A stretch of 64,000 bases of DNA, taken from positions 247 to 64,246 of the forward strand of contig CAYJDW010000006.1 of assembly GCA_964368985.1 (NCBI GenBank), given 5' to 3'. Below the pieces are notes generated by a model that searched no databases, had not been told where the DNA came from, and saw only the letters and a program-made list of their open reading frames with translations. Below, piece after piece: positions 1,607-19,525 of this stretch. How positions within the stretch are numbered: the first letter of the stretch is position 1; every line of letters begins with the position of its first letter. The position numbers and the translations under genes are program-made. This DNA is from an uncultured Myxococcales bacterium. GTDB lineage: Bacteria; Myxococcota; UBA727; JABDBI01.

Positions 1607-3292
1607 TTAAGGCCGAGGCTGACCAGTGCTTTTTTCGCGAACATAAATGCCCTTGGTTTTAACCCACAAAATCATTTTGTCGGTGTTACCAAAGAGAGTG
1701 ACTTGGCTATTGGCGCTATCATCTAGGCCCACCGCACTTTTATCGCTCATCATTTCATGTTTCTTGGTATCCAAATTTGCCAGCGTGTAATCGTTAATCG
1801 CATTAGGGCTGCCATCAACATTGACGCCCTTAAGACCATCACTTGTCATCAGGTGAATCACGCCCGTTGCTCTCACCACACCGACTATACTTAGATTTGG
1901 AAAGCTCATTTCTGCATGCTGGCCTGCAGCTTGGGTGCCATTAAAATGAGCAAGACCGCCCGTGCCGGGAGTAGTATCATTAGCGAGGCCCGCGTAATAA
2001 TGTTTGACGCCATTATTATCAAAACTACCGATGACATTGAATATTAGGTTTGGCGTTGCGGCCGATTTCCAGTTGATATCAGCGCCATCTGGCTCAGGGA
2101 AAAGGCGTGGGCTATCATCCTCAGTTTTTCCAAAATCGGCAGCAGTGGGAGCTGCTGGATCTGGGTTCGTGTGAGCATTGGGGAATTCCCAAATTCCCTG
2201 CGTGGAAGCGAGCAACAAATGGTCGTTATGCGTATTGCCGGCCCTAAGCCAGATTTGGTCGTGATTGGCACCAGCAGTTAGACGAGTTTTGAAATACTTG
2301 GGTGTGCTCCCTATCGAAACAGTGCCAGCCGCATCCTTGATAAAGACAGAGTTTGCGCTTTGTTGCCCAAAAACCACGCTAAGGCCAGCCGCGGTAGTAA
2401 TCACGTCGACAAATTTAATATCTTCATTTTTAAGATGCTGAATTTTATTATTCGGATGGAAATTACTGTCGTAGTTGCCACTAGCATCAAGTCCCCAGCT
2501 TGCTTTAGCACCTTTTAGAATCATGATTTTTTTTCCACTAAAGATCACAGCACCCTCTTCGGTCGCGATCATGGCAGAGGGTTCAGTCGTCTTGGTATCA
2601 AATGTTTGCAGGGCCGGATTTATAACGTTATTTTCAAAAGGCCGTGCACTTAGAATGCCATCTCCAGCATTTCCTACTCGCGTCCATGTCGCTCCATCAT
2701 CATCACTGTGATAAAGGCCCTTTGTCGTCGCATCAGCCCCCCTTTTATAGGCATATATTTGGCTGTGGTTGCGGCTGACCGCTACTTGACTAACGTCAGC
2801 AATGGCTGCTCCTGCGGGCAAAGTAGCCTCGGTCCAGGTGAAGATGTCCTCGGTAGTCGGTTTTTCAATGCATTTGCTGCCATCCCAATTGCACTTAGTA
2901 TTAGCGGTACAAGGACCATCGAGCTGGATAGTTCCACACTTGCCTTTTTCAGCATCGGACGCCTCATTACACTTGCGCGTATCATCAACGTAAATGCACT
3001 GATCACTCCCTTTGCAATCGTTTTCATTTTTGTCTTCGCACTTGCCCAGCGGAGGAGTGGTTGCTACGCTACACTGCTTGGTCGCGCCATCATAAACGCA
3101 GGCCTTGCTATCTTCTTTTGCTTGTTTGCATTCCGCTTCTTTGCCGTGGAAGCTTGCGCATTTGGTAGATGCAGAATTATAAGTCGCAGGCGTGGGGGTA
3201 TCGGCGCCATCGTTTTTGCATCCGCTTGCGAAAAGAACCGTTGCCAAGAAAATCATTTTAAGCATTAAGCTCCAGCAATATTTTTGATTCAT
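1607..3292 (-). CDS. Surface lipoprotein with three tandem 4-Cys repeats followed by a BNR/Asp-box beta-propeller-like domain
   Basis: The start at MNQKY is preceded by a gaggag RBS. The lipobox is LFASGC. The repeat pattern C-x6-9-C-x5-9-C-x-[YW]D-x4-C occurs three times. The motif 'SDDDGATW' is a BNR (Asp-box) signature. Confidence 0.7.
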   Translation of the reverse strand: MNQKYCWSLMLKMIFLATVLFASGCKNDGADTPTPATYNSASTKCASFHGKEAECKQAKEDSKACVYDGATKQCSVATTPPLGKCEDKNENDCKGSDQCIYVDDTRKCNEASDAEKGKCGTIQLDGPCTANTKCNWDGSKCIEKPTTEDIFTWTEATLPAGAAIADVSQVAVSRNHSQIYAYKRGADATTKGLYHSDDDGATWTRVGNAGDGILSARPFENNVINPALQTFDTKTTEPSAMIATEEGAVIFSGKKIMILKGAKASWGLDASGNYDSNFHPNNKIQHLKNEDIKFVDVITTAAGLSVVFGQQSANSVFIKDAAGTVSIGSTPKYFKTRLTAGANHDQIWLRAGNTHNDHLLLASTQGIWEFPNAHTNPDPAAPTAADFGKTEDDSPRLFPEPDGADINWKSAATPNLIFNVIGSFDNNGVKHYYAGLANDTTPGTGGLAHFNGTQAAGQHAEMSFPNLSIVGVVRATGVIHLMTSDGLKGVNVDGSPNAINDYTLANLDTKKHEMMSDKSAVGLDDSANSQVTLFGNTDKMILWVKTKGIYVREKSTGQPRP

Positions 3293-3446
3293 CCTAAATA
3301 TCTCCTCGTGAAAAAGGTATCTGGCAATCACATAACCTATCTATTTAGTCCCAACAACAGCATCGATTTTTGGTAATGAAAAAATTAAATTTCGAAATAT
3401 TAATTTGAAAACAATAAAATGTGGTTCTCGTCTAGTTTTGATTGAG

Positions 3447-4125: not shown

Positions 4126-7122
4126 TCAAAGAATTAACATCAATATTTTATTAATGGCCACTTCATCAAAGAAAAACCAATAAAAAGTTATAAATAACCA
4201 GATAGTAAATAAGAGCGACCAATAATTGGTGACTATACTTGAATTTATACGTGTTCGTTGTTCCGCAGTGAGAGTTTTATGATAGCTGAATGCGGTAATA
4301 AAGAAGATTATCAATATCATCAGATAAGAACTGATAAGCAATAGTTCCATGTAAATTAAATTTTTGCTGACATAAACAGAGCTAAAATTGCTATGAAGTA
4401 AAAGTGTCGCAAATAATAAAGCTAAACAAGCTGATATGGTCGTACTAATTGTGTTTATTTCTTTATGAGCTAGTAAAATCACAATGAAAAGGGCTGATAA
4501 TATAATCAATTGTGGCAGACCATAAAGTATCCATGCATTGGTTAGGCTGCTTTTTTGTTCAATATTAAAAGTTAGCACTGGTATATTGAAGGAGTGATGA
4601 GTAAAAAGGCCGTCATTTTTTTTAAACATTGAAAAGTTAGTATTAAATATTAAATTTTGATTGTCGTTTTCCGGAGAGATTCCTATAAATTTTCCCGGTT
4701 GTTTAGGTGGATATGAATTAAAATCAGGAACAAAAACTACGGGCTCTATTAAGTTATTTGGCAGAACGGTTAATGATATTGTTTGGATATCAAATGGGTA
4801 AAAATTAATAGTATCATTTATTATTATCGTGGAGTTGAAATTATAGAGCCATTTTATGTCATTGTCCTCGGCAGGAAATTTTCCAAAGGATGTAATCCTA
4901 GTATCCAGTGCTTCTTTAAAATGAAAGGGATAAGGCTCCGCTTGGTCAGATTCTCTCACTTGCCACATTCGACCGCTTATAGTAGCAATTTTGCTATCTT
5001 TGATAAAAAATTCGTCAATCTCAATACCAAACAATATTTTTTTGACATTTTTAATATTACTGCTTTGCAAGATTTTATTTAAAATTAATTCAGTGGAAGG
5101 CGCATCATTTAATTTGCTGTCTTTATTTTTTTCATAAAATTCTAAAGAGGCAAGTTTAATCCAAAATAAAGCAAGTGAAGTTAGTAACACAGCTGTGACA
5201 CTAATTATAAAGAAATATAGATTGTGAGTTTTATTTCTAATGAGCGATGAAATAAGAAATATTAAGGCAATTGCAGATAATGTTGCGAATGCTATGTTTA
5301 ACCCATACCAGGTAAATAGGGTTTTATTGCTATATATTATTTGAGAAAATGAAATATAAGCGAGGCGTAAATCTAGCTTGGCGAGGGCCACAAACCTTAT
5401 AAATGAACCATCATTATTTTCTTGATCAGACCTTAATAATTGATCAACAGTTGAAAAATTTGTATTTTTCAGAAGCAATATATTTTTTTCATTGGTTTCA
5501 GAGTTTATATAATCAAGATTAACTTCTTCTTCTAAAAAATGTCTATGAGGATGATATAAAATCTTATTATCCGAATCAAATGCTATTAAATAACCATAAT
5601 TGGCAATAGATAAGTTGGCTAAATGACTTCTTATTGTGTCCATCTTTAAACTCACCAACACATAGCCAATTATTTTTTTGTCATTTTCATAGATGGGGGC
5701 GCAAAAAGAAATTACATCGACAGAATCAGTATAATCATATCGCTTAGACCAATTTTGAGTGCCTCGGCTGCATGTTTCTGCCCAATAATCATGAAGTTGG
5801 GGGGAAGATCTTGCATCAAAAGAAGTTAATTTAGCTTCTCTTTTTATGCTGGGCCAATCTAAATTTTTGTCATTAAAAATTACATTTATTGCGTAAATTT
5901 TATCATAATTTTTTGCTGTAATTTTAAGACGATTATTGATTAATTTATGGATCAACTTTTTGTCGCTAATATCTTCAGATAAAGAAGAACTAATAAATTC
6001 AGCCAAATTGACTAAACCATTAGTTTGGAGCAATGCATTGTCAACAATGACTTTAGACTCGTTCTCGGCTTCTCCAGCCAAATAAGCGTCGTAGTTTATA
6101 TATTTGTTAATAGAAATAATAGTAAAAAAAGCTGTATGCCCAAATACTAAGGCTAAAAAGAAGATTAGAATGAACCTGTCGGTTTGGAAAAATTTTAAGC
6201 ATAAGTTATTTAAAAATGTGTAAATTAATAATGATAATGGTAGAAAGAGTAATATGAAAAATAATAAGTAAATTATATTAATGCGTACCAAATCCAGCAT
6301 TGAAGCTTCAACATGTTCAATAAAAAAACCGCCATTGATGGTAGGCACTGGCTTATAGAAATAACTTGCACCATTTATATTGCGAGCTTGCCCATAAATG
6401 CCTTTTAATGCCAGGGAAGGGGGGAATTTATTGGCTTCCTCCTGATTTAAATAATTAATCATTAATCCGGTAGTATTTGAATTCTTTCTGATGATAGTTA
6501 TGTTTTGTTGCTGCGATAAGATTATTCCATGCACATTCTCCTGGTTTTCAGAATTAGTCCCCAAAAGCGCGGCAGCAATTTTGGGAGCATCTAAGCTTAT
6601 TGAGGCAAGTCCAATTAGTTTTTGTTGGAAGAAGACTGGAGTAGCGATACTGACAGTTAACCTTTGTTTATTTGACTCCGAAATATATAAACCCGCTACC
6701 TGAGTAGAAAGAAATTTAACAGCGTTTGGAATGGCATCAGGAATGGGAACAAATTGTCCAAGAGGATTCCCAGACAACACGTTATTAAGATTATTGTCCA
6801 GTAGACTGATACCTAAGAATTTTAGCTCGTGCTCAATTCCACTGGCAATTTTGGGATTTTTACTAAAAAAGAGGGAGCTTATTCGAGAGTCATGGGCGAT
6901 TAATTCAGCTTGTTCTTTTAGGTCGTCTAACTCGCTATCAATCGGTGCCATTTGTTCAAGAAGTTTTTTGTTTAATGTATCGAAAAGTATCACTTGCTGT
7001 TTTTCATTGGATAGAACAAAAATCTTGTAAACGAGATGGATAGAAATAAGAAAAAAACCCGCGAAGAAAACCAAAAAAGGCTTCCAACTAAATCGATCAA
7101 AGAAAAATTTAATATATTTCAT
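4126..7122 (-). CDS. Large membrane receptor protein, about 1000 aa. The C-terminus is a pentameric ligand-gated ion channel (pLGIC/Cys-loop family) module: extracellular domain plus M1-M4. It is preceded by two additional periplasmic segments, each flanked by TM hairpins.
   Basis: The C-terminal ~330 aa contain the loop signature 'NFYPFDIQTISLTV' (FPFD-Q, as in the GLIC/ELIC loop). They also contain an M1 helix with conserved Pro (YGLPQLIILSALF), a Ser/Thr/Leu-rich M2 (TISTTISACLALLFATLLL), an M3 helix, a short M3–M4 loop and an M4 helix (TNYWSLLFTIWLF). Upstream, the predicted topology is TM1, ~240-aa periplasmic segment, TM2-3 hairpin, ~250-aa periplasmic segment, TM4-5 hairpin, then the channel extracellular domain. 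The start is chosen at MKYIKFF (ATG at 7122), which overlaps the PBP stop as ATGA. The gene is very AT-rich and Asn/Ile/Lys-rich. Confidence 0.75.
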   Translation of the reverse strand: MKYIKFFFDRFSWKPFLVFFAGFFLISIHLVYKIFVLSNEKQQVILFDTLNKKLLEQMAPIDSELDDLKEQAELIAHDSRISSLFFSKNPKIASGIEHELKFLGISLLDNNLNNVLSGNPLGQFVPIPDAIPNAVKFLSTQVAGLYISESNKQRLTVSIATPVFFQQKLIGLASISLDAPKIAAALLGTNSENQENVHGIILSQQQNITIIRKNSNTTGLMINYLNQEEANKFPPSLALKGIYGQARNINGASYFYKPVPTINGGFFIEHVEASMLDLVRINIIYLLFFILLFLPLSLLIYTFLNNLCLKFFQTDRFILIFFLALVFGHTAFFTIISINKYINYDAYLAGEAENESKVIVDNALLQTNGLVNLAEFISSSLSEDISDKKLIHKLINNRLKITAKNYDKIYAINVIFNDKNLDWPSIKREAKLTSFDARSSPQLHDYWAETCSRGTQNWSKRYDYTDSVDVISFCAPIYENDKKIIGYVLVSLKMDTIRSHLANLSIANYGYLIAFDSDNKILYHPHRHFLEEEVNLDYINSETNEKNILLLKNTNFSTVDQLLRSDQENNDGSFIRFVALAKLDLRLAYISFSQIIYSNKTLFTWYGLNIAFATLSAIALIFLISSLIRNKTHNLYFFIISVTAVLLTSLALFWIKLASLEFYEKNKDSKLNDAPSTELILNKILQSSNIKNVKKILFGIEIDEFFIKDSKIATISGRMWQVRESDQAEPYPFHFKEALDTRITSFGKFPAEDNDIKWLYNFNSTIIINDTINFYPFDIQTISLTVLPNNLIEPVVFVPDFNSYPPKQPGKFIGISPENDNQNLIFNTNFSMFKKNDGLFTHHSFNIPVLTFNIEQKSSLTNAWILYGLPQLIILSALFIVILLAHKEINTISTTISACLALLFATLLLHSNFSSVYVSKNLIYMELLLISSYLMILIIFFITAFSYHKTLTAEQRTRINSSIVTNYWSLLFTIWLFITFYWFFFDEVAINKILMLIL

Positions 7123-8357
7123 TTGCTTGTTTGACTCCAATGCCCGCCCCATCCTTTGTAAAGCTGCTCTAATAATTTGAGCCACTCTTTTTTAGGCCGG
7201 GTAGGAATGAATGGTACCGGCTCAATAGGCATGCCCGAGGACCATAAGATCTTGAAATCACCTATTTTGTTGATTTGAGCGATCCGGATAATACGCCAAG
7301 CGTGCTGGGTATGTGGATCTAAATAAACTAAGCCACTGGGAGAAGCGATTGATTGACCTCGTAATGCCTTTGTTACCGCGCTTGCTTGCCAAGTATTTGC
7401 CGCTTTTACTGCTTGGTGCCAGAGCATGACGCCATTATAAGCCGATTCCATTGGGTCAAAAACTTTAAGCTGGGGATTAAGCAGAGGCTTAATGGCAGAT
7501 AAAAATTGTTCATTTTCTTTTGTATCTATAGCCTGAAAATAACTCCAGGTGGTGTAGTCACCAAGCATGGACTCGTAGCCGAGTAAGCGGACATCTTCTT
7601 CAGTGAGGCTAAAAGACATCGTTGGAATGATATCTGGCGTGATTCCGGCTTCACGTAAGAGATTAAAGAAAATCAGATTAGTATCGCCATTAATAAGATT
7701 TAAAATAACATCGGGCTTTAACGTCTTAATATCATTAATGGCTTGTGAAACATCTTTGGAGCCTAGAGGCATAAAGGAAAAACCCGTCAACACGCCCCCA
7801 TAGGCTTTTAATGCATCTTTAATAATCTCTAAGGCTACTTTTGGAAAAACATAATCACTGCCAACGACATAGAATTTTGGTCCACGTTGTTTAATCATCC
7901 AAGAGACAGCTGGTAAAATTTGTTGATTAGCAGACATTCCTAAATAAAATATATTTTTTGACTGCTCTAACCCTTCGTATTGCAAAGGGTACAGGAGTAA
8001 ATGATCATGTTCTTCAATGACTTCTTTTACTGCTTTACGCGAAGATGAAGTCCAACACCCAAAGATTACAGACACTTGTTCTTTTTCGATAAGTTCGCGT
8101 GCCATTTTGGCAAAATATTGTTCATCCGACCGGCCATCTTTTATGATGGGAACAATAGTTTTTCCTAAAATCCCGCCTTGTTGATTAATGACTTCAATAG
8201 CATGCAACGTAGCTGCTAAGACAGGGCCTTCTGCCGTAGCCATAGACCCACTTTGTGAGTGAAGCACACCCACCTTAATAACCCCGCTGTTTTTGCTACA
8301 GCCGACCAGAAACAAGGCCAGGCAAAATTTTGTGGCTATTATAAAGATGTTTTTCAT
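7119..8357 (-). CDS. Type-I periplasmic binding protein (ANF-receptor/LivJ/AmiC-like) lipoprotein
   Basis: The signal peptide and lipobox are LFLVGCSK. The N-terminal 'IKVGVLHSQSGSMATAEGPVLAATLHAIEVINQQGGILGK' is characteristic of the Peripla_BP_6 / Leu-Ile-Val-binding family. The stop overlaps the start of the pLGIC gene. Confidence 0.75.
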   Translation of the reverse strand: MKNIFIIATKFCLALFLVGCSKNSGVIKVGVLHSQSGSMATAEGPVLAATLHAIEVINQQGGILGKTIVPIIKDGRSDEQYFAKMARELIEKEQVSVIFGCWTSSSRKAVKEVIEEHDHLLLYPLQYEGLEQSKNIFYLGMSANQQILPAVSWMIKQRGPKFYVVGSDYVFPKVALEIIKDALKAYGGVLTGFSFMPLGSKDVSQAINDIKTLKPDVILNLINGDTNLIFFNLLREAGITPDIIPTMSFSLTEEDVRLLGYESMLGDYTTWSYFQAIDTKENEQFLSAIKPLLNPQLKVFDPMESAYNGVMLWHQAVKAANTWQASAVTKALRGQSIASPSGLVYLDPHTQHAWRIIRIAQINKIGDFKILWSSGMPIEPVPFIPTRPKKEWLKLLEQLYKGWGGHWSQTSK

Positions 8358-8554: not shown

Positions 8555-9694
8555 ATGAGATACGCACTTTCGAGCTTCCTGCTAGAAAAATTTCCAGAAC
8601 TGGCCACCCCTATCTATGGTCTCCCAGCTTGGTATTGGGCTAGTATTTTGTTGGCATTGCTTATTTCTTTGCTGGCCGCAAGCTCATTAAAAAAACCTCT
8701 TGGCAATTTGGTCGCCTTTTTATCGAACCAGAAAGAACTGCACGATAAAAGGCTCTTCATTGAGAAACTCAATGGTCCCATCAGCGTTTTTGCGACCATC
8801 GTGAGCTTTCTTATTTTGAGTATTTTCATCAAAGACCCTGAGCAAAAAGATCAGACCGTATCGGTGGCTCTGAAACTGGCAGTTTTCTTAGGTTTTACCT
8901 ATTTGTTTTACCGCCTCATTGATCTTGGTTTCACCCGCATGATTCGCAATAATCAAAGTCCCCGCTCGCGCGTAGGCTTGGTTTTGCCGCTGGGGCGCAG
9001 GGTGGCAAAAACCATGCTGATAATTTTGGCATTTTTGCTCCTGCTGGGTCAGGTGGGTGTCGATGTTTCGGCCTTTTTAGTGGGATTAGGAGTAGGGGGC
9101 TTGGCCATCGCTTTAGCGGCGCAAAAGATCTTAGAAAACCTTTTTGGCGGCGCGGTGCTCTCTCTCGATCAGCCTTTTCAAGTAGGCGATTATTGCCGCT
9201 GTGGCGATATTCTAGGCTATATCGAGGAAATCGGCATTCGCTCTACAAGAATACGGACTTTGGATAGAACCCTCGTCACGATTCCTAATTCTAAGCTTTC
9301 GGAAATCCATATCGAAAACTATATGGAGCGAGAAAAAATACGGCTCTATTCGATCTTACGCATTGATTTATCGACTTCTCTTGCGCAGCTGCATGAACTA
9401 TTATCCGAGTTTGAACGCTTGCTTTTATCTAATGAGAATTTTTACCAGGATATATATCGTATCCGCTTAATTGCTATTACTGATTTAGGATATGAGGTGG
9501 AAATATATTCATTCGCGAAGACTACTGAATGGCGAGTATTTGCCGCCATGAGAGAAGAATTATTTTTTACCTATTTGGCGAAAATGGAAGAGCTCGGCGT
9601 TAAGTTTGCCTTTCCGAGCCAGCATGTCTATTTGCAAGAACCCGAAGGCCAAGAAATTAAAACTCAATCGCCTTCAGTTGTTCATGAATCCTAA
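8555..9694 (+). CDS. Small-conductance mechanosensitive channel (MscS family)
   Basis: N-terminal TM helices are followed by the MscS beta-domain signature '…[51 protein letters not shown]…'. Confidence 0.8.
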
Positions 9695-10307
9695 ACTTCG
9701 CGCCCGTTTTGGTGGCGATTTCGTCGACGCTCACCCCCGGCGCATGCTCAAGCAACGTGAGCCCGTCCTCGACGAGAAAGACCGCCAAATCAGTAACGAT
9801 CATGTTGGTACAAGCCTTACCGGTCAAAGGAAGGCTACAGTGCTCAAGGATTTTATGTTCGCCGTCTTTATTAACGTGCTCCATGGCCACAATAACTTTT
9901 CGAGCGCCCGCGACTAGATCCATGGCTCCTCCCATGCCTTTGACCATTTTGCCCGGAATCATCCAGTTGGCGATATCGCCATCAACCGACACCTGCATTG
10001 CTCCTAACACGCTTAAATCCACGTGCCCCCCGCGGATCATGGCGAAAGAATCGCTCGACGAGAAAAAAGCCGCACCTTTGATGGTAGTGATAGTTTGTTT
10101 ACCAGCGTTGATTAAATCAGGATCTTCGTCGCCATCATAGGGAAAAGGTCCCATACCTAAGAGGCCATTCTCGCTCTGAAAAAATACCTCCAAATTTTTT
10201 GGTACATAATTGGCAACCAGCGTCGGCAAGCCAATGCCCAGATTCACCACAAAACCATTTTTCAATTCCAGAGCAACTCTTTGCGCTATTTGTTCCCGAC
10301 TAAGCAT
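9657..10307 (-). CDS. scoB: 3-oxoacid CoA-transferase subunit B
   Basis: '[36 protein letters not shown]…' is typical of the beta subunit. The start is set at the internal Met just after the scoA stop. The ORF-track 5' extension to 10388 overlaps scoA and is probably not translated. Confidence 0.8.
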
Positions 10308-11067
10308 GATGGCCTCCTGGGCTGGGACGAATGGTTTTTTGTTCGATCCATTTTTGATAATGTTCGCCTTTATAAACATGCTGAACATAGGCGCCTGATA
10401 AATGCACGCGATCCGGTTCCAACTCTCCTAAAGGCACCACATGTTCTACTTCTGCCAAGGTAATAGCGGCAGCAGTAGCCATGATCGGATTAAAGTTGCG
10501 GGCGGTCTTATTAAAAATAAGATTGCCAAAAGAGTCCGCGGTATGAGCCTTGATGAGCGCAAAATCAGCTTTGAGCGATTCCTCCAGTACATAATCTTTG
10601 CCCCCAAAACGCCGTATTTCTTTAGGTTTGGAACTTTTCACGACGCGGCCCTGACTGTCGTGCAGCATCGGTAGACCGCCATCGGAGACCAGGGTATGTA
10701 CCCCGGTCGGCGTAAAAAAAGCAGGAATCCCCGCGCCGCCTGCTCTAATTTTCTCGGCAAGTGTCCCTTGAGGAATAAGTTCAACCTCAAGTTCACCCGT
10801 TAAAAATTGGCGCTCGAAAATTTTATTTTCACCCACATAGCTTGCGATCATTTTCTTGATTCGCCGCTCTTTTAGTAAAACCCCCAAACCCAAATCCGTG
10901 GTTCCACAATTATTGCTAATGATGGTCAAATCCTTGACGCCCGATTCAAAAAGCGCGCCAATAAGATATTCGGGGTTGCCGCACAGCCCGAAACCGCCCA
11001 CCATAATAGTGGCGCCATCTTTCAGCTGCTCAAGCGCTTGCGCTAAGTTGCTAATAATTTTGTTCAT
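10300..11067 (-). CDS. scoA: 3-oxoacid CoA-transferase subunit A
   Basis: '[33 protein letters not shown]…' is typical of the alpha subunit. It sits in tandem with subunit B. Confidence 0.8.
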
Positions 11068-11216: not shown

Positions 11217-12683
11217 ATGGGACCTTTGGCATATCAAAATGCAAACGCACTTTTAAGACAACTACGAAGCGGTGAAATTAGTTCCAGTGAACTAGTTCTT
11301 GAGAGTATTCGCCGTATCGAGCGCTATGACAATCAAATTAATGCGGTAGTGGTGCGCGACTTTGATCGTGCCCGCGAAGCCGCACTAAAAGCAGATAAAG
11401 CCTTGGCACGAGCTGAGTCGGGAGCCCTCTTAGGCCTGCCTATTACCATTAAAGAGAGTTATTCTGTAGCTGGCTTCTCGAAATCCTGGGGAGTCGCAGG
11501 ATTTGAGAAAAAAGTGGAAGTCACGGATGGCGTAGTAGCAAAACGGCTAAAAAAAGAAGGGGCGATTATCTTAGGAAAGACCAATGTGCCCACTTATCTG
11601 GGAGATTGGCAAACTTATAACGATATTTATGGTGTTACCAACAATCCATGGAATCTAAGTTTGACTGCAGGTGGATCCTCGGGTGGCAGTGCAGCGGCAT
11701 TAGCTGCCGGCTTTAGCTCTTTGGATTTTGGCTCCGATCTCAATGGTTCTTTGCGAGTCCCCGCACATTGTTGCGGCATTTATGCGCATAATCCAAGTTA
11801 TGGTCTCGTTCCGCAGCGAGGTCACGAGCCCCCGGGCTATCAGCAGCTTTCAGTTGCACGCGGAATGGAATTTGCCGTTAATGGGCCTCTTGCGCGCTGT
11901 GCCGAAGATCTAGAATTGGGGCTTAAACTTATTGCTGGTCCTGATGACGACATGGCTATGGCTTACAAACTTTCTTTGCCGAAAAGTCGCCATAAAAAAC
12001 TGAAGGATTTTCGAGTACTCTTACTTAGCCAGCATCCATTCTTGCGAACTTCGAATGATGTAGAAGCAGCTCTGGAGGAGTGTGCTGCCCATCTTATCCG
12101 TCAAGGAGTAGCGGTAGAAAGATCAGCTGTCGGCCATCTCGACCTTGAAAATATCGCATCCACTTTTTTGCAACAGCTCATGGCACTTCTGAATGTGGAT
12201 TTGTCCGATGAAGAGTATAAAAAAGCACAAGCAGAGGCGGCAAAACTGCCCTCCGATATTCAAAATCTTGAAGCTTTGGTGCTCCGCGGTCGCGTACTCA
12301 GCTATCGCGATTTTAACCGAATAGGCAGAATAAGGACACAGCTTCGCCACCAATGGCGTGAACTTTTTAAGCACTTCGATGTTGTGTTGTGCCCCGTCAT
12401 GCCAATTCCAGCCTTTCCACACGATTATTCTCCCGACCTCAATACGCGTAGCCTAATGGTCGATGCTCAAAGGATTCCCTATGGCGCAGTAGGCATGTGG
12501 TGTTCTCTCGCTACCCTTACAGGCCAGCCCTCAACAGTTATGCCGATTGGTCAAAGCCGAGAAGGCTTGCCCATTGGTATGCAAATAATAGGCCCCTTTC
12601 TCGAGGACCTCACCACTATTGGATTTGCGCAATGCCTCGAACGAGAGTTCGGCGGTTTTAGACCGCCTCCTGCTTTAAGTTGA
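11217..12683 (+). CDS. Amidase-signature family amidase (GatA-like)
   Basis: Amidase signature 'GGSSGGSAAALAAGFSSLDFGSDLNGSLRVPA'. Confidence 0.75.
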   Translation: MGPLAYQNANALLRQLRSGEISSSELVLESIRRIERYDNQINAVVVRDFDRAREAALKADKALARAESGALLGLPITIKESYSVAGFSKSWGVAGFEKKVEVTDGVVAKRLKKEGAIILGKTNVPTYLGDWQTYNDIYGVTNNPWNLSLTAGGSSGGSAAALAAGFSSLDFGSDLNGSLRVPAHCCGIYAHNPSYGLVPQRGHEPPGYQQLSVARGMEFAVNGPLARCAEDLELGLKLIAGPDDDMAMAYKLSLPKSRHKKLKDFRVLLLSQHPFLRTSNDVEAALEECAAHLIRQGVAVERSAVGHLDLENIASTFLQQLMALLNVDLSDEEYKKAQAEAAKLPSDIQNLEALVLRGRVLSYRDFNRIGRIRTQLRHQWRELFKHFDVVLCPVMPIPAFPHDYSPDLNTRSLMVDAQRIPYGAVGMWCSLATLTGQPSTVMPIGQSREGLPIGMQIIGPFLEDLTTIGFAQCLEREFGGFRPPPALS

Positions 12684-12800
12684 GGAAAAGGCGTGTTTAG
12701 TTAATTTATTTTTATATTTTTTGCGCCAAATAATTAAAACATTCCCCCAAAAACACCCAACAAACGATGAGTATTTATTTCTTAACTCAAAGGAGAGTTA

Positions 12801-14786
12801 TTGATGATAAAAATAAGATCGCGTTTGTTCACAATTTTTTTTCCTCTAAAGGCTTTATTTTTGCCCGGCCTGGCCTTCTTATCTGGCCATGTAATAGCCA
12901 TGCCAAAATACAGTGCCCATGGTGCTGAAGTTAATGCTCTGCAAGCATTTGCTGTTAGCGAAGATCCGGTGCTAAAAGGTACGCTAATTCTGGCAGACGA
13001 AAAGTCCTCGGTACTCTACGTTTCCCCAAGTTCTAAGAAAGTTCAAACTGGAATCTTTCAGCAGGTTGCTTCAACAGCCTGCAATATACTTGAAAACCAC
13101 TATGACTTGACTTATCTGCTGCCCAATGTTCCCGTTGAGCAATACGCTCATTTCGCAAAAGGCGGCCCTTATTCACCGTTTTTTGATTCAAAGGTGGGAA
13201 ACTATGTGCGCCAGTCAACGATCCTCTCTCAAATAACTACTAAAGTTGCACAAATCCAACAGATTAAGGATAGCCACCGGGATGTGATTGCTGCGTATGA
13301 AAAAGCCAAAGGACGCTTTGAGGACGCGCAGACAACATTTAATAAAGCTGAGGCTGCCTATAGTGAACTCGATAACAACGTCGCTAAATACTCTCTCTTG
13401 TGGCTCAATGCGTCAACCAATGAGGCTCGAGAAATGATGAAAATGGAACTTGACCAAGCCAAGCAAGTGAGAACAGCGGAAAACGCTCAGCGAAAGGAAA
13501 CTTTAAGGGCAGCGATGAATGCTGTGTTTAGTCAGCAAGTTGCTTATCGAGAAGCCAAAGAGATTTACGACCGGAGCATACCGAACCACGAAGAAATAAA
13601 AAAAGACGTTGCTTCTCTCATGGAATTTTTTGAAATTATCCAAAGCCTTGCTTTGACCCATTATACTCTGAGCGAACGAGCCTTACAGGATTTTGAGAAC
13701 ACCACTGTCGGCGTGGCATCGGCCAGTTACAGTATTTGGGGCGAAGAAGAAGTGCGGCTGGAAAATGCTTTAGCGCGTTATAAAAGTAGAAATCCCTTTT
13801 TTGCCGATGTAAGTGTCGCGCGTCTGCCCATTCATAATATCCGGCTAAAAAAACCCGTAAGCAGTGTTCTTGCGGCAAATATTACGGGGAATTTTAATGG
13901 CGACACTTCATCTAAGACGGCGCAGCAAGGAACTTCAAGCGACAGTATCGCTGTAGGTGATCAAAGCAAACCATCAGATCGTGCCATTTTCACTAAGGAT
14001 AAGCAGCTGGTTATTCCAGAGGTGAAAACTCTATTTGGCGATGGGGCGGGTACCTATCAAAACATGGTGACCAGAGGTGCGGCGTGCAGTGGAAAGTCGG
14101 AGAAACAAATAGTTAAGATAAGTGCAAATTTAGCTTCGTCTGGCTTAGAAATAGAAACTAATTTTGACGTCCCAGTTTTTAACCTTCGACAAAACAATGT
14201 CCTTGCTCAAAGTGTAGCCCTTGAATATGATTTCCACACTCGAAGTGAACCCATGAAAGTAAGCTGCTCGATGGATATTAAAAAGTTCCGGTCCTTTGTT
14301 GCTGATACAGGCGAAAGTGGCTTTTTATTCTGGCGCAAATCATGGTCAAAGGTTGATAGGCAACGCGCCGATAATTCAGGGGTGAGCTGCTCAGTAAAAT
14401 TGTCACCCATGGGAGAAAACCCCAATTATGAAGAACAAAAACAATACTTGGATTTAATTAAACAAGGAATGATGCAAGAAATTGCTGCCGAGTTCATTCT
14501 GACTTATGCGAAAAGCTGGAAGATAACCCAACGTCAGCCATCCCTCCCTAATCCAGGGAAGGCCGCCTACCAGGCAGGAGTGGCCCTAATGACACTATGC
14601 GGTCCTAATATCTATTGCGCTGTTGGATCTATTATCCTGAAAACTGGGGATGAACTCTTCGGAGCTCATTATGACGAAGTCTCCACTGGTGACTATTTAT
14701 CCGGCAAAATCGAGAGATCCTACGACGAGACGGCATGGACTACATCGAGCGGGCAAGCCATTATTGACTTGACAGTGACGCTTTAA
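12801..14786 (+). CDS. Secreted hypothetical protein, 661 aa, with a central coiled-coil region
   Basis: An aaaggagag RBS precedes the start. The protein has a signal peptide (…LAFLSGHVIA|MPK) and a long heptad-like region (residues ~160-300). No recognisable catalytic motif was found. Confidence 0.6.
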   Translation: MMIKIRSRLFTIFFPLKALFLPGLAFLSGHVIAMPKYSAHGAEVNALQAFAVSEDPVLKGTLILADEKSSVLYVSPSSKKVQTGIFQQVASTACNILENHYDLTYLLPNVPVEQYAHFAKGGPYSPFFDSKVGNYVRQSTILSQITTKVAQIQQIKDSHRDVIAAYEKAKGRFEDAQTTFNKAEAAYSELDNNVAKYSLLWLNASTNEAREMMKMELDQAKQVRTAENAQRKETLRAAMNAVFSQQVAYREAKEIYDRSIPNHEEIKKDVASLMEFFEIIQSLALTHYTLSERALQDFENTTVGVASASYSIWGEEEVRLENALARYKSRNPFFADVSVARLPIHNIRLKKPVSSVLAANITGNFNGDTSSKTAQQGTSSDSIAVGDQSKPSDRAIFTKDKQLVIPEVKTLFGDGAGTYQNMVTRGAACSGKSEKQIVKISANLASSGLEIETNFDVPVFNLRQNNVLAQSVALEYDFHTRSEPMKVSCSMDIKKFRSFVADTGESGFLFWRKSWSKVDRQRADNSGVSCSVKLSPMGENPNYEEQKQYLDLIKQGMMQEIAAEFILTYAKSWKITQRQPSLPNPGKAAYQAGVALMTLCGPNIYCAVGSIILKTGDELFGAHYDEVSTGDYLSGKIERSYDETAWTTSSGQAIIDLTVTL

Positions 14787-14794
14787 TTTTTTTT

Positions 14795-14822
14795 AAGGGA
14801 GTAATCTTTTACTCCCTTTTTT
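14795..14822 (+). terminator. Rho-independent terminator
   Basis: aagggagtaa-tctt-ttactccctt is followed by a T8 run. Confidence 0.7.
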
Positions 14823-14833
14823 TTGGAGGCTAT

Positions 14834-15352
14834 GTGAAACAAAAATATATTTTTATTGGTGCAACCTGTACGGCCTTATTAATGGCTATAATTTTGACAA
14901 AACATCTTTTTAAAAAAAGTCCCAATGATGCCGAAAAATCTTTGGTATCAACAACAACACAGGGATCTTCTGAGCCTCCGACCAATCCACTATATTCTTC
15001 CGAGGCAGTGGCAGAAATTCTAAAACTTGCTCGCACTGTGAGCAAGGATAGTCCCGTTAATAAAGAAGCTTTGCGTGAAATGAAAGATAGCGTCCATGAG
15101 ACCAAAACCAGTTATGAAAAAGTTCTTTCGTCATTCCAAGAAGCCATCAACAGCTATGAAGAGTTGTCTCAAAATTTCGATCTTAAATTGCGTCAGGGGG
15201 CCGGCTCAGCAGAATTGGCCCAGATGGATCAACAACTTCAAAGCCAGGCTCAAAAAATTCTTGTCTTAAAAAAAGAATCAAATGATGCCTACGTGGATTT
15301 GATGGCGCAATTCGATCAAGCAATTCCTGCCATTTTAGAGAAACACTTTTAG
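14834..15352 (+). CDS. Hypothetical secreted/membrane-anchored coiled-coil protein (172 aa)
   Basis: A GGAGG RBS precedes a GTG start. The N-terminus is hydrophobic (FIGATCTALLMAIIL) and the rest is predicted coiled coil. Confidence 0.5.
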   Translation: MKQKYIFIGATCTALLMAIILTKHLFKKSPNDAEKSLVSTTTQGSSEPPTNPLYSSEAVAEILKLARTVSKDSPVNKEALREMKDSVHETKTSYEKVLSSFQEAINSYEELSQNFDLKLRQGAGSAELAQMDQQLQSQAQKILVLKKESNDAYVDLMAQFDQAIPAILEKHF

Positions 15353-15360
15353 GAGTATCC

Positions 15361-16479
15361 ATGAAATACTTATGGTTGATAACTTTTTTTGTACATCATG
15401 CTTCTTTTAGCGACGATGCCACCTGCAAAAAAAGTCTTCTGCTGATCAGCGATCTGGAGCAAGAAAAAATTAAAACGCTCTATGATTTTAAGAATAATAA
15501 TCTTGGAAATTGGTCCCTGATAGGCGAGCGTTCTCATTTTGGCTTTGCTTTAGAACCTCAAAAAATCGCTCCCTATCGCCTTAGCTGGGAGATCAAGCTC
15601 CCCGGGAAGAATGAGCATATTTTTCAAGATGGTGGGTTTAGTTGCGAGATACCGCTGACATGGCAACTCAAGCCTAAAAAAGACCTTCAAATTGTTTTTC
15701 CCAAGGCTGCCCATGGGCTTCAAGAGGATAGTTCGCTTCATTCCCTGCTTACTTTTGCCGGAATATATTTGGCGAAAAGTATCTATATGGGCTTTCCAGA
15801 TATGATTCGAATCATGTGGCATTTGAATCAATCTCGCCTGCCAGAGGAGGTGGTGTCAGGACTTATTACCTCTTTTCCGTTTGTCGGTCATAATCTCAAT
15901 CTCTTAGAAAACACCTTGGATAAAAATAACGGGGTGCAACTCATTGCCCTTCATTTTTCCCAGGCGATGGAATTGGATCAAGGTGAGTCGCGCTGGCTTA
16001 TTACTAACGCCGGGGATCAGGATGCGATCAGAAAAGGCAGTTACCACACACCGGAGTCAAAACATAATATGTGGCTGCCCTGGCTAGATTTTAGCCGACC
16101 AGAATTCAAAGCCTCGTCTATCCAAGAGGTTCATAAAACTACGATTGTAGCACCATTAGCAATAGCAAAAATATATAACCGCAGCACCCGCAGTTATATC
16201 CCCGATCCCATCCCGGTGCAGGATAAAATGCAAATGGTCTATGACCTTATTTCCCCATTAGTTAGGGCGCGTATGGATGATAACCAGGCATTATTTACTC
16301 ATCTTCTTTTGCAATCAAAGTTCGGCTATGAACTTTATGTTTTTGAAATTCTTCAAAGCGGGGCGTTGGTGCCTCTTTCAAGCCAAGAGATAAAAGACCC
16401 GTCATTGCTCGGTTTGCCAAGTGCTCAGGAGCTAGGTTTTAGCTCTCAACCGCTCTCAGACATTAACGGCATTCAATAA
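15361..16479 (+). CDS. Hypothetical secreted protein (372 aa)
   Basis: An AGGAG RBS lies 8 nt upstream of the start, and the gene is tightly spaced after the previous stop. The N-terminus is hydrophobic and no motif is recognised. Confidence 0.5.
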   Translation: MKYLWLITFFVHHASFSDDATCKKSLLLISDLEQEKIKTLYDFKNNNLGNWSLIGERSHFGFALEPQKIAPYRLSWEIKLPGKNEHIFQDGGFSCEIPLTWQLKPKKDLQIVFPKAAHGLQEDSSLHSLLTFAGIYLAKSIYMGFPDMIRIMWHLNQSRLPEEVVSGLITSFPFVGHNLNLLENTLDKNNGVQLIALHFSQAMELDQGESRWLITNAGDQDAIRKGSYHTPESKHNMWLPWLDFSRPEFKASSIQEVHKTTIVAPLAIAKIYNRSTRSYIPDPIPVQDKMQMVYDLISPLVRARMDDNQALFTHLLLQSKFGYELYVFEILQSGALVPLSSQEIKDPSLLGLPSAQELGFSSQPLSDINGIQ

Positions 16480-16490
16480 AAGGAGAACTC

Positions 16491-16790
16491 ATGAAAATGC
16501 GCTATTGGACAACTTTGGTTTTGCTGCTGAGCGGATCTCTTTTGGGGTGTCAAAAAAATGAAAGGACTCAGGTACTTTCCAAAGAAAATCCACCAAATCT
16601 CTCAATCGTCAGCGAAAATAAATGTGAGGTTTTGGCGCAACTTTCATTTGGGGAGGAAGTGATGCGCCATTATTCGCTCATGGGCCAAAATGACTTCGAA
16701 AAAGAGGGTATTTTAGAGATTGAATTTACTTGGACAGATGGCACGAATGAGCAACGTTTTGATTGCACTTTCAAGCCTAAAATGTCCTAA
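16491..16790 (+). CDS. Small lipoprotein (99 aa), hypothetical
   Basis: An AAGGAG RBS precedes the start. The lipobox is LLSGSLLGCQ. Confidence 0.55.
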   Translation: MKMRYWTTLVLLLSGSLLGCQKNERTQVLSKENPPNLSIVSENKCEVLAQLSFGEEVMRHYSLMGQNDFEKEGILEIEFTWTDGTNEQRFDCTFKPKMS

Positions 16791-16877
16791 AACGCCGAGC
16801 TTCTCGTTTAACATTTGCCGCTCGTTTCTGGTCTTTGCGAGCGGAGCGGGGCAATCTGGGGAATGCCACCTTTTATA

Positions 16878-16903
16878 AATTGCCGCGCTCTGGTCGCAAT
16901 GAC
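16878..16903. repeat. Short REP-like palindromic motif (copy 1): attgccgcgct…tcgcaatgac
   Basis: A near-identical motif occurs at 21875..21900. Both sit between convergent gene ends. The reverse-strand translation gives the familiar spurious '…HCERS…' peptide. Confidence 0.5.
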
Positions 16904-16933
16904 AACAACTGCCGGTCATATCTGCATCACGTT

Positions 16934-17668
16934 CTACGCGCCATGAGACTCCGGTACTTTCGTAAGATTTAGTTGTTCCCGAAATACCTGAAGCAAGGCG
17001 CGGGCATTTTTTAGCTGGGACGAATCATTATTTAAAAAAGCAATCACGCGATGGCAGCCGCTTTCAATGACCGAAATAGCGATGCGGGAAAGTTCTTTTC
17101 GCGAATAATGATGCTCAAACCAATCTGAGCGCCCATGGAGGCGTAAATAAACGGTGCCGCTGGTGTTTATGATATCGCGAGGCACGAGCGAGCTATCGGC
17201 GCTTACGACCGTGATGCCAAGTGATTTAGCCCATTCTATGTGGTCTTTACTAAACCATCGAGCGTTGCGCCATTCGAGAGCAAAACGGGGGCCAAGGCCG
17301 GATTTTTCGAAGAAAATTTCGATATCTTTTCTGATGGTCGGATGGGCATTGGGGGGCAGTTGGAAGAGATAATATGCCACTTGGTTGTCGAGGGGGGCAA
17401 AAAGATTTTTAAACTCGCGAAATCGTTCAAAAGCAATATCGTTAAAGCGGAAAAAATGAGTAACCGAACGATTAATCTTAACCGTCCACTCGAGGTTTTT
17501 GCCCTCATCAGCCCAGCTAATAATTTGGTCATGACTTGGCAATTGATAAAATGACATATTGAGTTCAATGGCATTTAAACGCGAGTTTTCCACATACCAA
17601 GGGAGTCCATTGGGATTCCAAATGGGATTAGACCATCCTGTCGTACCAACCAATATTTCCATCAACAT
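16934..17668 (-). CDS. DUF72 (YecE-like) family protein
   Basis: 'ILVGTTGWSNPIW…FYQLP…' is the N-terminal signature of the DUF72/UPF0759 family. Confidence 0.65.
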   Translation of the reverse strand: MLMEILVGTTGWSNPIWNPNGLPWYVENSRLNAIELNMSFYQLPSHDQIISWADEGKNLEWTVKINRSVTHFFRFNDIAFERFREFKNLFAPLDNQVAYYLFQLPPNAHPTIRKDIEIFFEKSGLGPRFALEWRNARWFSKDHIEWAKSLGITVVSADSSLVPRDIINTSGTVYLRLHGRSDWFEHHYSRKELSRIAISVIESGCHRVIAFLNNDSSQLKNARALLQVFREQLNLTKVPESHGA

Positions 17669-17823
17669 TCACCTTAGGCTAGGCATTTTAAATAATAAGT
17701 AGCTTTCCCCATGGTAAGAAGCAAAAGTTAAACCGCAAGAAGAGTTTTAAAGATAATTGTGACGAATGGTGAATACGCAAGGCGCCACAGCGTGTTGATT
17801 GGGAAAAAAAATCGAGGTCACCG

Positions 17824-19440
17824 TTGAAAATATTCGAGAACCTGTGCGTAGTTATTGCCTTTTGTGGGGCAGGGGCCTTGGGGGCAGGGCCTCCAAACTT
17901 AAAAGAACTCGTGCTTCTTCATACCAACGATATGCATTCGCGTATCTTGGGGGTCGATGTCCAGGACAACATGTGCACGCTACAAAGTCGTGACAAAGAA
18001 TCCTGTTTTGGTGGTTTTGACCGCATTTTTACCGTCGTAAATCAAGAGCGCAAAAAAAATGAATCTACCATTGTGGTGGATGCGGGCGATCAGTTTCAGG
18101 GCACGCTTTTTCATCAGCTCTATCGCGGTAGAGTATCGGCTATGTTTATGAACCAAATCCGCTATGACGCTATGGCAGTGGGTAATCATGAATTTGATAA
18201 TGGCCCTCAGGTTTTGGCAGAATTTATCAAAGAGATGAAATTTCCACTTCTGAGCGCGAATATTAATGTGTCGGCGGATAAGGATTTGGCGGGCAAGGTG
18301 AGGCCCTACACCATTGTGCAAAAGGGGAAGTTGCGCGTGGGAATTATTGGCTATACCACCGAAGACACGGCCTATTTATCTTCTCCAGGGCCGGATGTGA
18401 GAATCGGCCCCATCATAGACAATGTCAAAAAAGCGGTTTTGGAACTTAAAAAAGCTCGCGTCGATGTGATCATTGCGCTTTCTCATTCGGGCTTAAAGCG
18501 GGACCAGGAAATAGCTTCTCAAGTCGATGGAATTGCAGCCATTGTGTGCGGTCATAGCAATTCGTTGCTCTCTAATAAAGTGAAGAATAGCGACGGACCA
18601 AGCCCGCTCGTTATTATGTCTCCGTCTAAAAAACCCGTGCTATTAGTTTCCGCCTATGCTTATGGCAAATATTTGGGCTATCTCAAATTTCGCTTTGATT
18701 CCCGAGGAGTGCCGGTGAGCTGGGAAGCTGATCCTATCTTGCTTGATACTACTATTGAGCGAAATCCTGCCATCGCCAAAGAGGCCGAAAATCTTTATAA
18801 GCCTATAAGTCACTATGAAAAACAATTAGTAGGAAGTGTTCCAGTAGATATTAATAGTCAGGAATGTCGCTTCGAAGAGTGTATTTTTGGCAACCTGATC
18901 ACCGATGCCATGAGCCGCCTAGGAAAGCCTCTTGGAGCCTCCATCGCCATCATGAATGCTGGAGGTATTCGGGCTTCCCTCCCCAAGGGCCCGGTTAATC
19001 AAGCGCAAGTAAAAGATGTTTTGCCCTTTGAGAAAAAGGTCGTATTCGTCAAACTAAAGGGGGACAGTATTCGAAAAATACTCGAACATGGCGTCAGCTT
19101 TGCCGAAAATAAAGCTAATGATAATACTGGCCGTTTTTTGCAGGTTTCTGGGCTTAAATATAGTTTTAATCCTTCCCATCCCCGGGGAAAAAGAGTGAAA
19201 GATATTCAGGTCCAAAACCCGGACACTGAGCTCTTTGAGCCGATTAAGCCTGAGCAAATATATGGCGTAGCGGCCAATAGCTATCTTGTACAAGGCGGCG
19301 ATAAATATAGTTTTTTTGCCGAATCGGTGGAGCGTTGGAGCATGGAGCTCAGTCTTAAGGATGTACTCAGTGCCTTTTTTAAAAGCCCCATCTCTCAACT
19401 TCCTAAGCGCGAAGGGCGCATTGTCAAACTTGATGAATGA
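17824..19440 (+). CDS. Bifunctional metallophosphatase/5'-nucleotidase (UshA-like), secreted
   Basis: TTG start and a signal peptide. Calcineurin-like motifs 'LLHTNDMHSR', 'VDAGDQFQGT' and 'GNHEFDNGP' are present, with a C-terminal 5'-nucleotidase domain. Confidence 0.8.
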   Translation: MKIFENLCVVIAFCGAGALGAGPPNLKELVLLHTNDMHSRILGVDVQDNMCTLQSRDKESCFGGFDRIFTVVNQERKKNESTIVVDAGDQFQGTLFHQLYRGRVSAMFMNQIRYDAMAVGNHEFDNGPQVLAEFIKEMKFPLLSANINVSADKDLAGKVRPYTIVQKGKLRVGIIGYTTEDTAYLSSPGPDVRIGPIIDNVKKAVLELKKARVDVIIALSHSGLKRDQEIASQVDGIAAIVCGHSNSLLSNKVKNSDGPSPLVIMSPSKKPVLLVSAYAYGKYLGYLKFRFDSRGVPVSWEADPILLDTTIERNPAIAKEAENLYKPISHYEKQLVGSVPVDINSQECRFEECIFGNLITDAMSRLGKPLGASIAIMNAGGIRASLPKGPVNQAQVKDVLPFEKKVVFVKLKGDSIRKILEHGVSFAENKANDNTGRFLQVSGLKYSFNPSHPRGKRVKDIQVQNPDTELFEPIKPEQIYGVAANSYLVQGGDKYSFFAESVERWSMELSLKDVLSAFFKSPISQLPKREGRIVKLDE

Positions 19441-19525
19441 AAAGTGCTAAATGGGGCCGCCCTTGTTTATTATGGCTAATTGAATAAGCTTAAAGCCGTC
19501 AATCAGTTTTAAGAGGAGTTTTTTT

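Follow-up and report, generated by a model that had tools for sequence, protein, structure and literature searches.

We analysed a 64,000-nucleotide stretch of DNA from an uncultured Myxococcales bacterium (contig CAYJDW010000006.1), referred to here as the window, and found that four adjacent genes, here named A, B, C and D, form a conserved unit of exported or envelope-anchored proteins, as judged from their targeting signals, that match no known family. Tentatively, we favour a reading in which A to D build a passive, lineage-specific, non-enzymatic periplasmic scaffold tethered to both membranes. Gene A (12801–14786) encodes a protein of 661 amino acids from a TTG start codon, predicted to be exported by the Sec pathway, and is the founding member of an orphan family; public gene calls start at the ATG at 12804 to give 660 residues, and an exact public copy exists (P0026). 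It is followed by gene B (14834–15352; 172 residues, GTG start, predicted to be bitopic), gene C (15361–16479; 372 residues, predicted to be exported by a signal peptide, exact public copy P0017) and gene D (16491–16790; 99 residues, a predicted lipoprotein with the lipobox LLG-C20). All four genes lie on the + strand in the order A–B–C–D, separated by gaps of 47, 8 and 11 bp, and the open reading frames (ORFs) agree with the four co-directional genes reported at these coordinates by a first-pass annotation made from the sequence.

The first-pass annotation had also noted good ribosome-binding sites, tight spacing and a terminator after the first gene, each of which was borne out. Strong ribosome-binding sites are located 4–8 nt upstream of all four start codons: AAGGAGAG at 12790–12797 for A, carried by the upstream intergenic region (12684–12800, + strand), GGAGG at 14825–14829 for B, AGGAG at 15351–15355 for C and AAGGAG at 16480–16485 for D. 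A scan of 12684–12800 with the sigma-70 consensus returned no site on the + strand. Between A and B, a terminator-like hairpin with a T-tract occupies 14795–14826 on the + strand. It comprises a 10-bp stem and a 4-nt loop (14795–14818), and its T-run abuts the ribosome-binding site of B; RNAfold gives −17.8 kcal/mol, with z = −4.9 relative to shuffled sequences. The same position is occupied in the two nearest lineages, by the same stem in one (L024) and by a different 10-bp stem in the other (L003), and the element probably serves as a partial terminator or an mRNA-stabilising structure. Since there is no space for a promoter between the hairpin and B, expression of B to D must come by read-through. 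The shared strand, the short gaps and the conserved gene order support co-transcription of A to D as one operon.

Conservation of the gene order, which the first-pass annotation had proposed as a check in related genomes, was assessed in 17 loci from approximately 15 independent lineages. Some of these loci had contributed to the B and C profiles, while L024, L014, L025, L016 and L028–L031 were independent of them. About 14 lineages with unrelated flanks retain the order A–B–C: a B homologue lies directly after A in 14 of the 15 lineages, and a C homologue then follows in all 14 that have enough sequence. The flanks change from one lineage to the next, and what is conserved is therefore the cluster itself. 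Only the seven closer lineages have a recognisable D. In Oligoflexus tunisiensis and one Oligoflexales metagenome-assembled genome (MAG), the D slot is filled by a lipoprotein of 99–105 residues, and the Oligoflexus and FG-1 versions of the cluster include one or two extra secreted proteins of 290–370 residues, which represent two further orphan families. Judged from gene order and homology, the core of the cluster is A–B–C, with a variable fourth position.

The A family is rare. Searches of an index of 5.8 billion proteins identified 16 full-length homologues, all unnamed, and a profile search of 1.84 billion representatives yielded 118 clusters, about 60 of them full-length (620–690 residues). 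A second tier of relatives, 500–760 residues in length, has the whole layout of A and aligns confidently only over the C-terminal domain; a further homology search with a profile of this remote tier produced only five proteins. Carriers include the cultured strain Oligoflexus tunisiensis Shr3 (Bdellovibrionota; Oligoflexia), Oligoflexus and Oligoflexales MAGs, ‘Bdellovibrionota bacterium FG-1’ and MAGs labelled ‘Myxococcota bacterium’. In Oligoflexus tunisiensis Shr3 the locus spans about 1,228,850–1,233,950 of NZ_BDFO01000001, and the contig of the window's own genome in public collections measures 703 kb. Each scanned genome yielded a single A-family locus, and no paralogue of A was found in the 64-kb window. 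The G+C content of the cluster matches that of the surrounding chromosome, and the neighbouring genes in the window are housekeeping genes, among them those for an amidase, a DUF72 protein, a 5'-nucleotidase, TruA and trigger factor. No relatives were found on plasmids, phages or viral contigs, and a phage or plasmid origin of the cluster was rejected on this ground. All occurrences found were on chromosomes of Oligoflexia-type (Bdellovibrionota) bacteria. In the closest relative (L024:9243–9829), transposase-type fragments (HTH_32 and a faint DDE_3) lie directly 3' of D, where the window has the DUF72 gene. At L030:832–2823, in a metagenome contig, two ORFs of 446 and 197 residues take the place of a single A homologue beside intact B and C, owing to either a pseudogene frameshift or an assembly error; in the nearly identical L028 the A homologue is intact at 663 residues.

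Comparison of the window with the L001 genome gives 50% identity for A and 46% for a CoA-transferase subunit, and A is therefore under constraint of the kind seen in core proteins. The other three diverge faster, increasingly so from C through B to D. Genes for CoA-transferase subunits are also found a few kilobases upstream of the cluster in both the window (9657–11067, − strand) and L001 (1713–2420), the sole trace of a wider shared neighbourhood. When the cluster and its flanks (window 12358–19476) were compared with L007–L012, six metagenome assemblies that originate from separate projects (Logan, JGI and ENA) showed 100% identity over A to D, and the only differences were one or two substitutions in the neighbouring 5'-nucleotidase gene. 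These observations point to a clonal, widely distributed organism; since the six copies of the cluster are identical, they hold no signal for within-species selection.

Family searches agreed with the first-pass annotation, which had recognised no family and assigned no catalytic motif. With A to D, nothing beyond sub-threshold coiled-coil noise came out of Pfam, NCBIfam, PHROGs and PADLOC, and Pfam returned nothing for 10 remote relatives, 28 isolated C-terminal domains of A and 10 lineage-specific partner proteins. Sequence-profile searches of the PDB, made with each of the four families and with the C-terminal domain of A, retrieved a designed binder, noise from coiled coils or signal peptides of lipoproteins, the last being the sole matches of the D profile. 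Foldseek found no match below E 1e-3 with the model of A (PDB and viral structures) or that of C (PDB). The top matches (F-BAR domains, Tc toxins, AhlB, colicins, SMC and tape-measure proteins) were long-helix alignments, with template modelling (TM) scores of 0.06–0.15 on the query and root-mean-square deviations (rmsd) mostly of 15–50 Å. No enzyme, ATPase, channel, transporter or catalytic signature was detectable in A to D or in the lineage-specific extra genes. Confident homology to housekeeping families and a lack of conserved synteny had been named at the outset as grounds for giving up the proposal; no housekeeping family matched, and synteny is conserved. We found no description of the cluster in the literature. 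On these searches, in which structures were compared by Foldseek with mediocre models, the cluster is unclassified, and it can be called categorically new only in the sense that it matches no known family or system.

Targeting signals were judged by eye, with a hydropathy script and from conservation across orthologues, and are thus sequence-based predictions. BamA, PBP1a and a TonB-dependent receptor are encoded in the window, which indicates that the host is diderm. A and C each begin with a signal peptide of the n–h–c type with an AxA-type cleavage site, as expected for Sec export. In A the signal peptide (residues 1–33; 12801–12899, + strand) has a predicted cleavage site VIA|MPKY, and the AxA|[LM]PxY pattern is conserved in all A orthologues, with a modified form in the remote relatives. 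In several lineages of the Oligoflexus type, C has a lipobox in place of its signal peptide. The N-terminus of B is positively charged and contains one hydrophobic membrane helix (residues 3–26). The signal peptide of D ends in a lipobox ([LVI][ASTVI][GAS]C); Cys20 is invariant and preceded by lipobox-like residues in seven orthologues, and it is predicted to be acylated. The +2 residue is Gln, not Asp. These predicted signals show all four products to be exported or envelope-anchored. The labels of the first-pass annotation (secreted, anchored, lipoprotein) are consistent with this conservation, although ‘secreted’ is supported only in the sense of export across the inner membrane.

The anatomy of A was derived from an AlphaFold2 (AF2) model (mean predicted local distance difference test score, pLDDT, 73; predicted TM score 0.49) and from statistics on 58 full-length members. 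All of its regions lie on the + strand. After the signal peptide comes a conserved alpha/beta module (residues 34–138; 12900–13214; pLDDT 75–88; length 104 ± 2.8 residues in the 58 members), which includes the strand VLYVSPSSKK, C93 and the invariant motif T104 Y105 ... F128 D129 G133 R137. The helical stalk (residues 139–299; 13215–13697; pLDDT approximately 90) is modelled as three helices (160–202, 207–259 and 263–299) joined by polar turns. Its length has a median of 161 residues with a standard deviation of 4.4, but no other folded region is less conserved, the mean top-residue frequency being 0.32 in the stalk compared with 0.43–0.44 for the globular parts. The stalk may thus act as a spacer, as its length is kept while its sequence is the least conserved. 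The turns (residues 203–206 and 260–262) and their flanks are polar across the family, and the sole hydrophobic stretch (594–613) lies in the C-terminal domain.

A conserved beta segment follows the stalk (residues 300–352; 13698–13856), with RLPIHN and the near-invariant motif G.ASASYSIWG.EE, which recovered relatives when used as a search pattern. A Ser/Thr/Gly-rich linker (residues 353–406; 13857–14018; pLDDT 23–46) is predicted to be disordered; it is poorly conserved, with a median length of 55 residues and a standard deviation of 6, and shows no clean alternating (period-2) hydrophobic pattern over the 58 sequences. The C-terminal domain (residues 407–661; 14019–14783), beta-rich in the AF2 model over residues 407–660, is the portion in common with the remote relatives and is among the most conserved parts of the protein rather than a variable one. 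C429, C489, C530, C600 and C606 are invariant, as is C93 in every sequence that covers that position. The model and these cysteines uphold the coiled-coil core and Cys-containing beta-rich tail described by the first-pass annotation. Two loops stand out in the C-terminal domain, an aromatic-basic one, SGFLFWRKSW (504–513), and a disulfide-type one, LCGPNIYC...LK..DELFG (599–621), and both the aromatic-basic and the Cys-bridged (LCG.N.YC) loops also occur in the remote tier. An outer-membrane beta-barrel was ruled out for the C-terminal half, since long helices interrupt the strands in the AF2 model, and a type IX secretion system (T9SS) or other C-terminal sorting domain was rejected for want of a Pfam match.

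Beyond its membrane helix, B consists of a Ser/Thr/Pro-rich tether and a C-terminal helical hairpin (residues approximately 60–172, about 110 residues) that ends in ILEKHF. The B profile matches the stalk of A weakly in several family members, while reversed decoys gave no matches. In hhalign, residues 89–167 of B align with residues 168–263 of A at a probability of 72% (E = 3.4e-5, score 43.7), across the turn and a terminal [YF]D..IP motif, and B against the alignment of 58 A sequences gives 68.5% (score 41.5). Reversed-alignment controls scored 17.8–21.4, at a probability below 1%. This is moderate evidence that the predicted periplasmic hairpin of B is a short paralogue of the A stalk, and it suggests that hairpin and stalk may pack together. 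Profile–profile tests did not link C or D to A, or D to C, and A and B are the sole related pair in the cluster. C has a conserved Cys pair (C22 and C95) and an AF2 model with a pLDDT of 66. In D, a tether of approximately 25 residues after the lipobox leads to a small domain of about 55 structured residues with a conserved pair, C45/C92.

A remote relative of A (P0116, locus L023) heads an operon that also encodes a 309-residue secreted protein, lipoproteins of 70 and 188 residues and a 113-residue membrane-anchored helical protein. Homology of these partners to B, C and D could not be demonstrated. Profile–profile comparison found C to be unrelated to the 309-residue protein, and the extra genes of the Oligoflexus-type clusters to be unrelated to A to D. 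At L023:10001–14117, and likewise in L021 and L022, remote A relatives head operons of their own made up of unannotated envelope proteins, which gives the appearance of a ‘dark’ envelope module that parallels the one described here, with analogous partners.

In the scaffold that we tentatively propose, A would be the main component, with two globular modules kept apart by the fixed-length stalk and the flexible 55-residue linker. A stalk of approximately 160 residues with helices of 37–53 residues would measure about 6–8 nm, and A would fold in an oxidising compartment as a disulfide-bonded scaffold. B would sit in the inner membrane, its flexible tether presenting the helical hairpin, a short look-alike of the A stalk, which may pack against or co-assemble with the stalk and so tie A to the inner membrane. 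C, predicted to be soluble here and lipid-anchored in some lineages, and D, which would be an outer-membrane-type lipoprotein given the lack of Asp at +2, would supply the outer-membrane side. The complex would then be a passive tether, spacer or envelope scaffold rather than a weapon. As transcripts must pass the hairpin after A to reach the other genes, A is probably made in excess over B to D in this sub-lineage. The conserved synteny and targeting signals, the constant stalk length, the likeness of B to A, the core-gene-like divergence, the lack of any catalytic or transport family and the analogous cast of the remote operon all speak for this proposal. Several points weigh against it. The A–B similarity is moderate only (72%), and coiled coils are prone to spurious matches; in profile comparison, the small membrane protein of L023 resembles neither B nor the A-like stalk of its own operon. 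Sorting of D to the outer membrane rests on the Escherichia coli rule. The hairpin after A is missing in distant lineages, where A and B abut or overlap, and the codon bias of A (effective number of codons 58; the window median is 52) does not point to high expression or abundance. A secretion system encoded elsewhere could also carry A to the surface.

In a different role, A would be a surface-displayed or released fibril, coat or adhesin-like protein and B, C and D would help in its assembly, anchoring or export. A major subunit gene followed by a terminator and accessory genes is the classic layout of pap-type and S-layer loci, and the hairpin after A with read-through into B to D resembles it; the conserved mature N-terminus LPxY, the Ser/Thr-rich linker and the envelope location predicted for all partners would fit as well. 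We nevertheless consider this role unlikely, as no outer-membrane channel, usher, secretin, type V secretion system, T9SS or sortase-type signal is present in A to D or nearby, D is far too small for a pore, codon bias does not suggest high expression, the hairpin is missing in distant lineages, and the sequence of A is conserved and not diversified, unlike that of typical surface-exposed proteins. The first-pass annotation had likened the layout of A to that of pore-forming toxins, of adhesins or of secreted effectors that come with small cognate partner proteins. Whereas its description of a unit of exported or envelope proteins without a known family stands, this resemblance received no specific support. 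As a toxin, adhesin or effector directed at prey, hosts or competitors, A would combine a signal peptide, a long helical region and a globular tail with small genes downstream for partner, chaperone, immunity or release proteins; the phylum contains predators, and the SGFLFWRKSW and LCGPNIYC loops could be membrane-interaction elements. Like the ClyA family (AhlABC, Hbl/Nhe, MakA/B/E and YaxAB), the cluster encodes several exported, largely helical proteins. However, no HBL-type Pfam match was found for A to D even at E ≤ 1, nor for 10 remote relatives; Foldseek alignments to AhlB, made with a confidently modelled stalk, had TM scores of 0.08–0.17, rmsd of 30–42 Å and E > 0.02, and those to AhlB, Tc toxins and colicins were coiled-coil noise (TM 0.06–0.15, rmsd 17–42 Å). 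The helix tips of A are polar, with no hydrophobic head or beta-tongue, and A has an unrelated C-terminal half of 300 residues. Nor is there a family domain or an amphipathic stem of the kind found in beta-pore-forming toxins (aerolysin, haemolysin and MACPF-CDC), to which A has no Pfam or Foldseek match. A large coiled-coil protein, a read-through terminator and a small lipoprotein at the end give the cluster a superficial likeness to colicin operons, and Foldseek touches the helices of ColE3 and ColE9. Colicins are generally plasmid-borne and SOS-induced, with variable cytotoxic C-termini, and are not known to carry a signal peptide. A, by contrast, has a Sec signal, a conserved and non-polymorphic C-terminal domain, a chromosomal location at one locus per scanned genome and no relatives on mobile elements or paralogue in the window, and it diverges no faster than a metabolic enzyme. 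No toxin, cytotoxic, immunity or defence family matched A to D; with regard to polymorphic toxins and anti-phage defence, PADLOC and PHROGs gave only coiled-coil noise for B, and no phage, plasmid or viral loci were found. The cluster is also present in Oligoflexus tunisiensis, which is not known to be a predator. A toxin, adhesin or effector role seems as doubtful to us as a surface role.

By analogy, A might instead be a periplasmic regulator or scaffold of cell-wall enzymes in the manner of EnvC or CpoB, with B binding the coiled coil and controlling the action of the C-terminal domain on a peptidoglycan enzyme, a role that we regard as improbable. The inner-membrane partner of EnvC, FtsEX, docks through its periplasmic part on the EnvC coiled coil (PMC7668044). 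Like A, EnvC is exported by the Sec pathway to the periplasm and consists of an antiparallel coiled coil at the N-terminus and a globular, beta-rich domain at the C-terminus, and EnvC–FtsEX is the closest analogue for a possible cooperation of A and B, with Tol–Pal/CpoB also near in working principle. In contrast to EnvC, A has no LytM/M23 domain by Pfam, nor has any of 28 C-terminal domains scanned singly; there is no PDB profile match and no FtsEX-type ATP-binding cassette partner. A also exceeds EnvC by 240 residues; it has an additional module at the N-terminus, a linker predicted to be disordered and six conserved cysteines, and no similarity in sequence or fold was detected. Tol–Pal and CpoB bridge the envelope through a helical protein in the inner membrane, a lipoprotein in the outer membrane and two periplasmic proteins, one of them a coiled coil (PMC7391070), and the operon described here has an analogous four-part cast. 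However, Pfam and NCBIfam reveal no TolQ/TolR motor, TolB beta-propeller or tetratricopeptide repeat in A to D and no OmpA-like peptidoglycan-binding domain in D; the model of C is not a propeller, and the cluster offers B no ATPase or motor partner. There is also no conserved linkage to cell-wall or division genes, PBP1a being 23 kb away in the window and unlinked in other loci. The HlyD, EmrA and MacA adaptors share with A a long periplasmic alpha-helical hairpin flanked by beta-rich parts, and weak matches to CzcB, EmrA and HlyD fall on the helices. Unlike them, A has no HlyD, lipoyl or beta-barrel match in Pfam, the sole NCBIfam match, to CzcB, has an E value of 0.46, the alignments give TM scores of 0.06–0.19 with rmsd > 25 Å, and no pump, transporter or outer-membrane-factor genes lie in or beside the cluster at any locus. 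Finally, A to D might be spurious ORFs or unrelated hypothetical genes brought together by chance, as none of them belongs to a known family. This has next to no probability: each ORF has constrained full-length homologues, the order recurs in about 14 lineages with different flanks, and the ribosome-binding sites and the gaps of 8–11 bp add to the case.

Elsewhere in the window, the G+C content drops to 0.31 between 4001 and 6000, compared with approximately 0.45 in other parts. This segment lies inside an ORF of 1019 residues (4126–7185, − strand) whose sole Pfam match is dCache_1 at residues 396–554, and the low-G+C part may be a low-complexity or foreign segment. Five more ORFs of 237–574 residues have no Pfam match at E ≤ 1e-5: 1607–3331 (−), 33531–35057 (+), 36346–37569 (+), 49016–50578 (−) and 56268–56981 (−). 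One of them, of 520 residues, is located between the gene for the TonB-dependent receptor and a set encoding a periplasmic binding protein and a FecCD transporter.

Many conserved gene clusters have no assigned function, and nothing about this one so far hints at a surprising mechanism. A bolder form of the scaffold proposal, which we hold to be distinctly unlikely as it stands though less so than a cell-wall regulator, is that A and B form a heteromeric helical bundle which, with C and D at the outer membrane, would serve as an unknown periplasm-spanning tether or ‘ruler’ that sets envelope geometry in Oligoflexia-type bacteria. If true, this would add a novel type of structural system to those that span the envelope, one with no relation to Lpp, Tol–Pal or adaptor proteins, and if the pairing of the B hairpin with the A stalk is real it would represent a new way to link two membranes. 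The Bdellovibrionota and Oligoflexia are poorly studied diderms with unusual cell shapes, some lineages of which are predatory or host-associated. The cluster is a compact, autonomous module whose order is kept both in uncultured lineages of soil and wastewater and in the cultured Oligoflexus tunisiensis Shr3, a carrier strain that makes it experimentally tractable. Overall, the conserved order and the core-like divergence of A suggest a lineage-defining envelope function rather than an accessory weapon.

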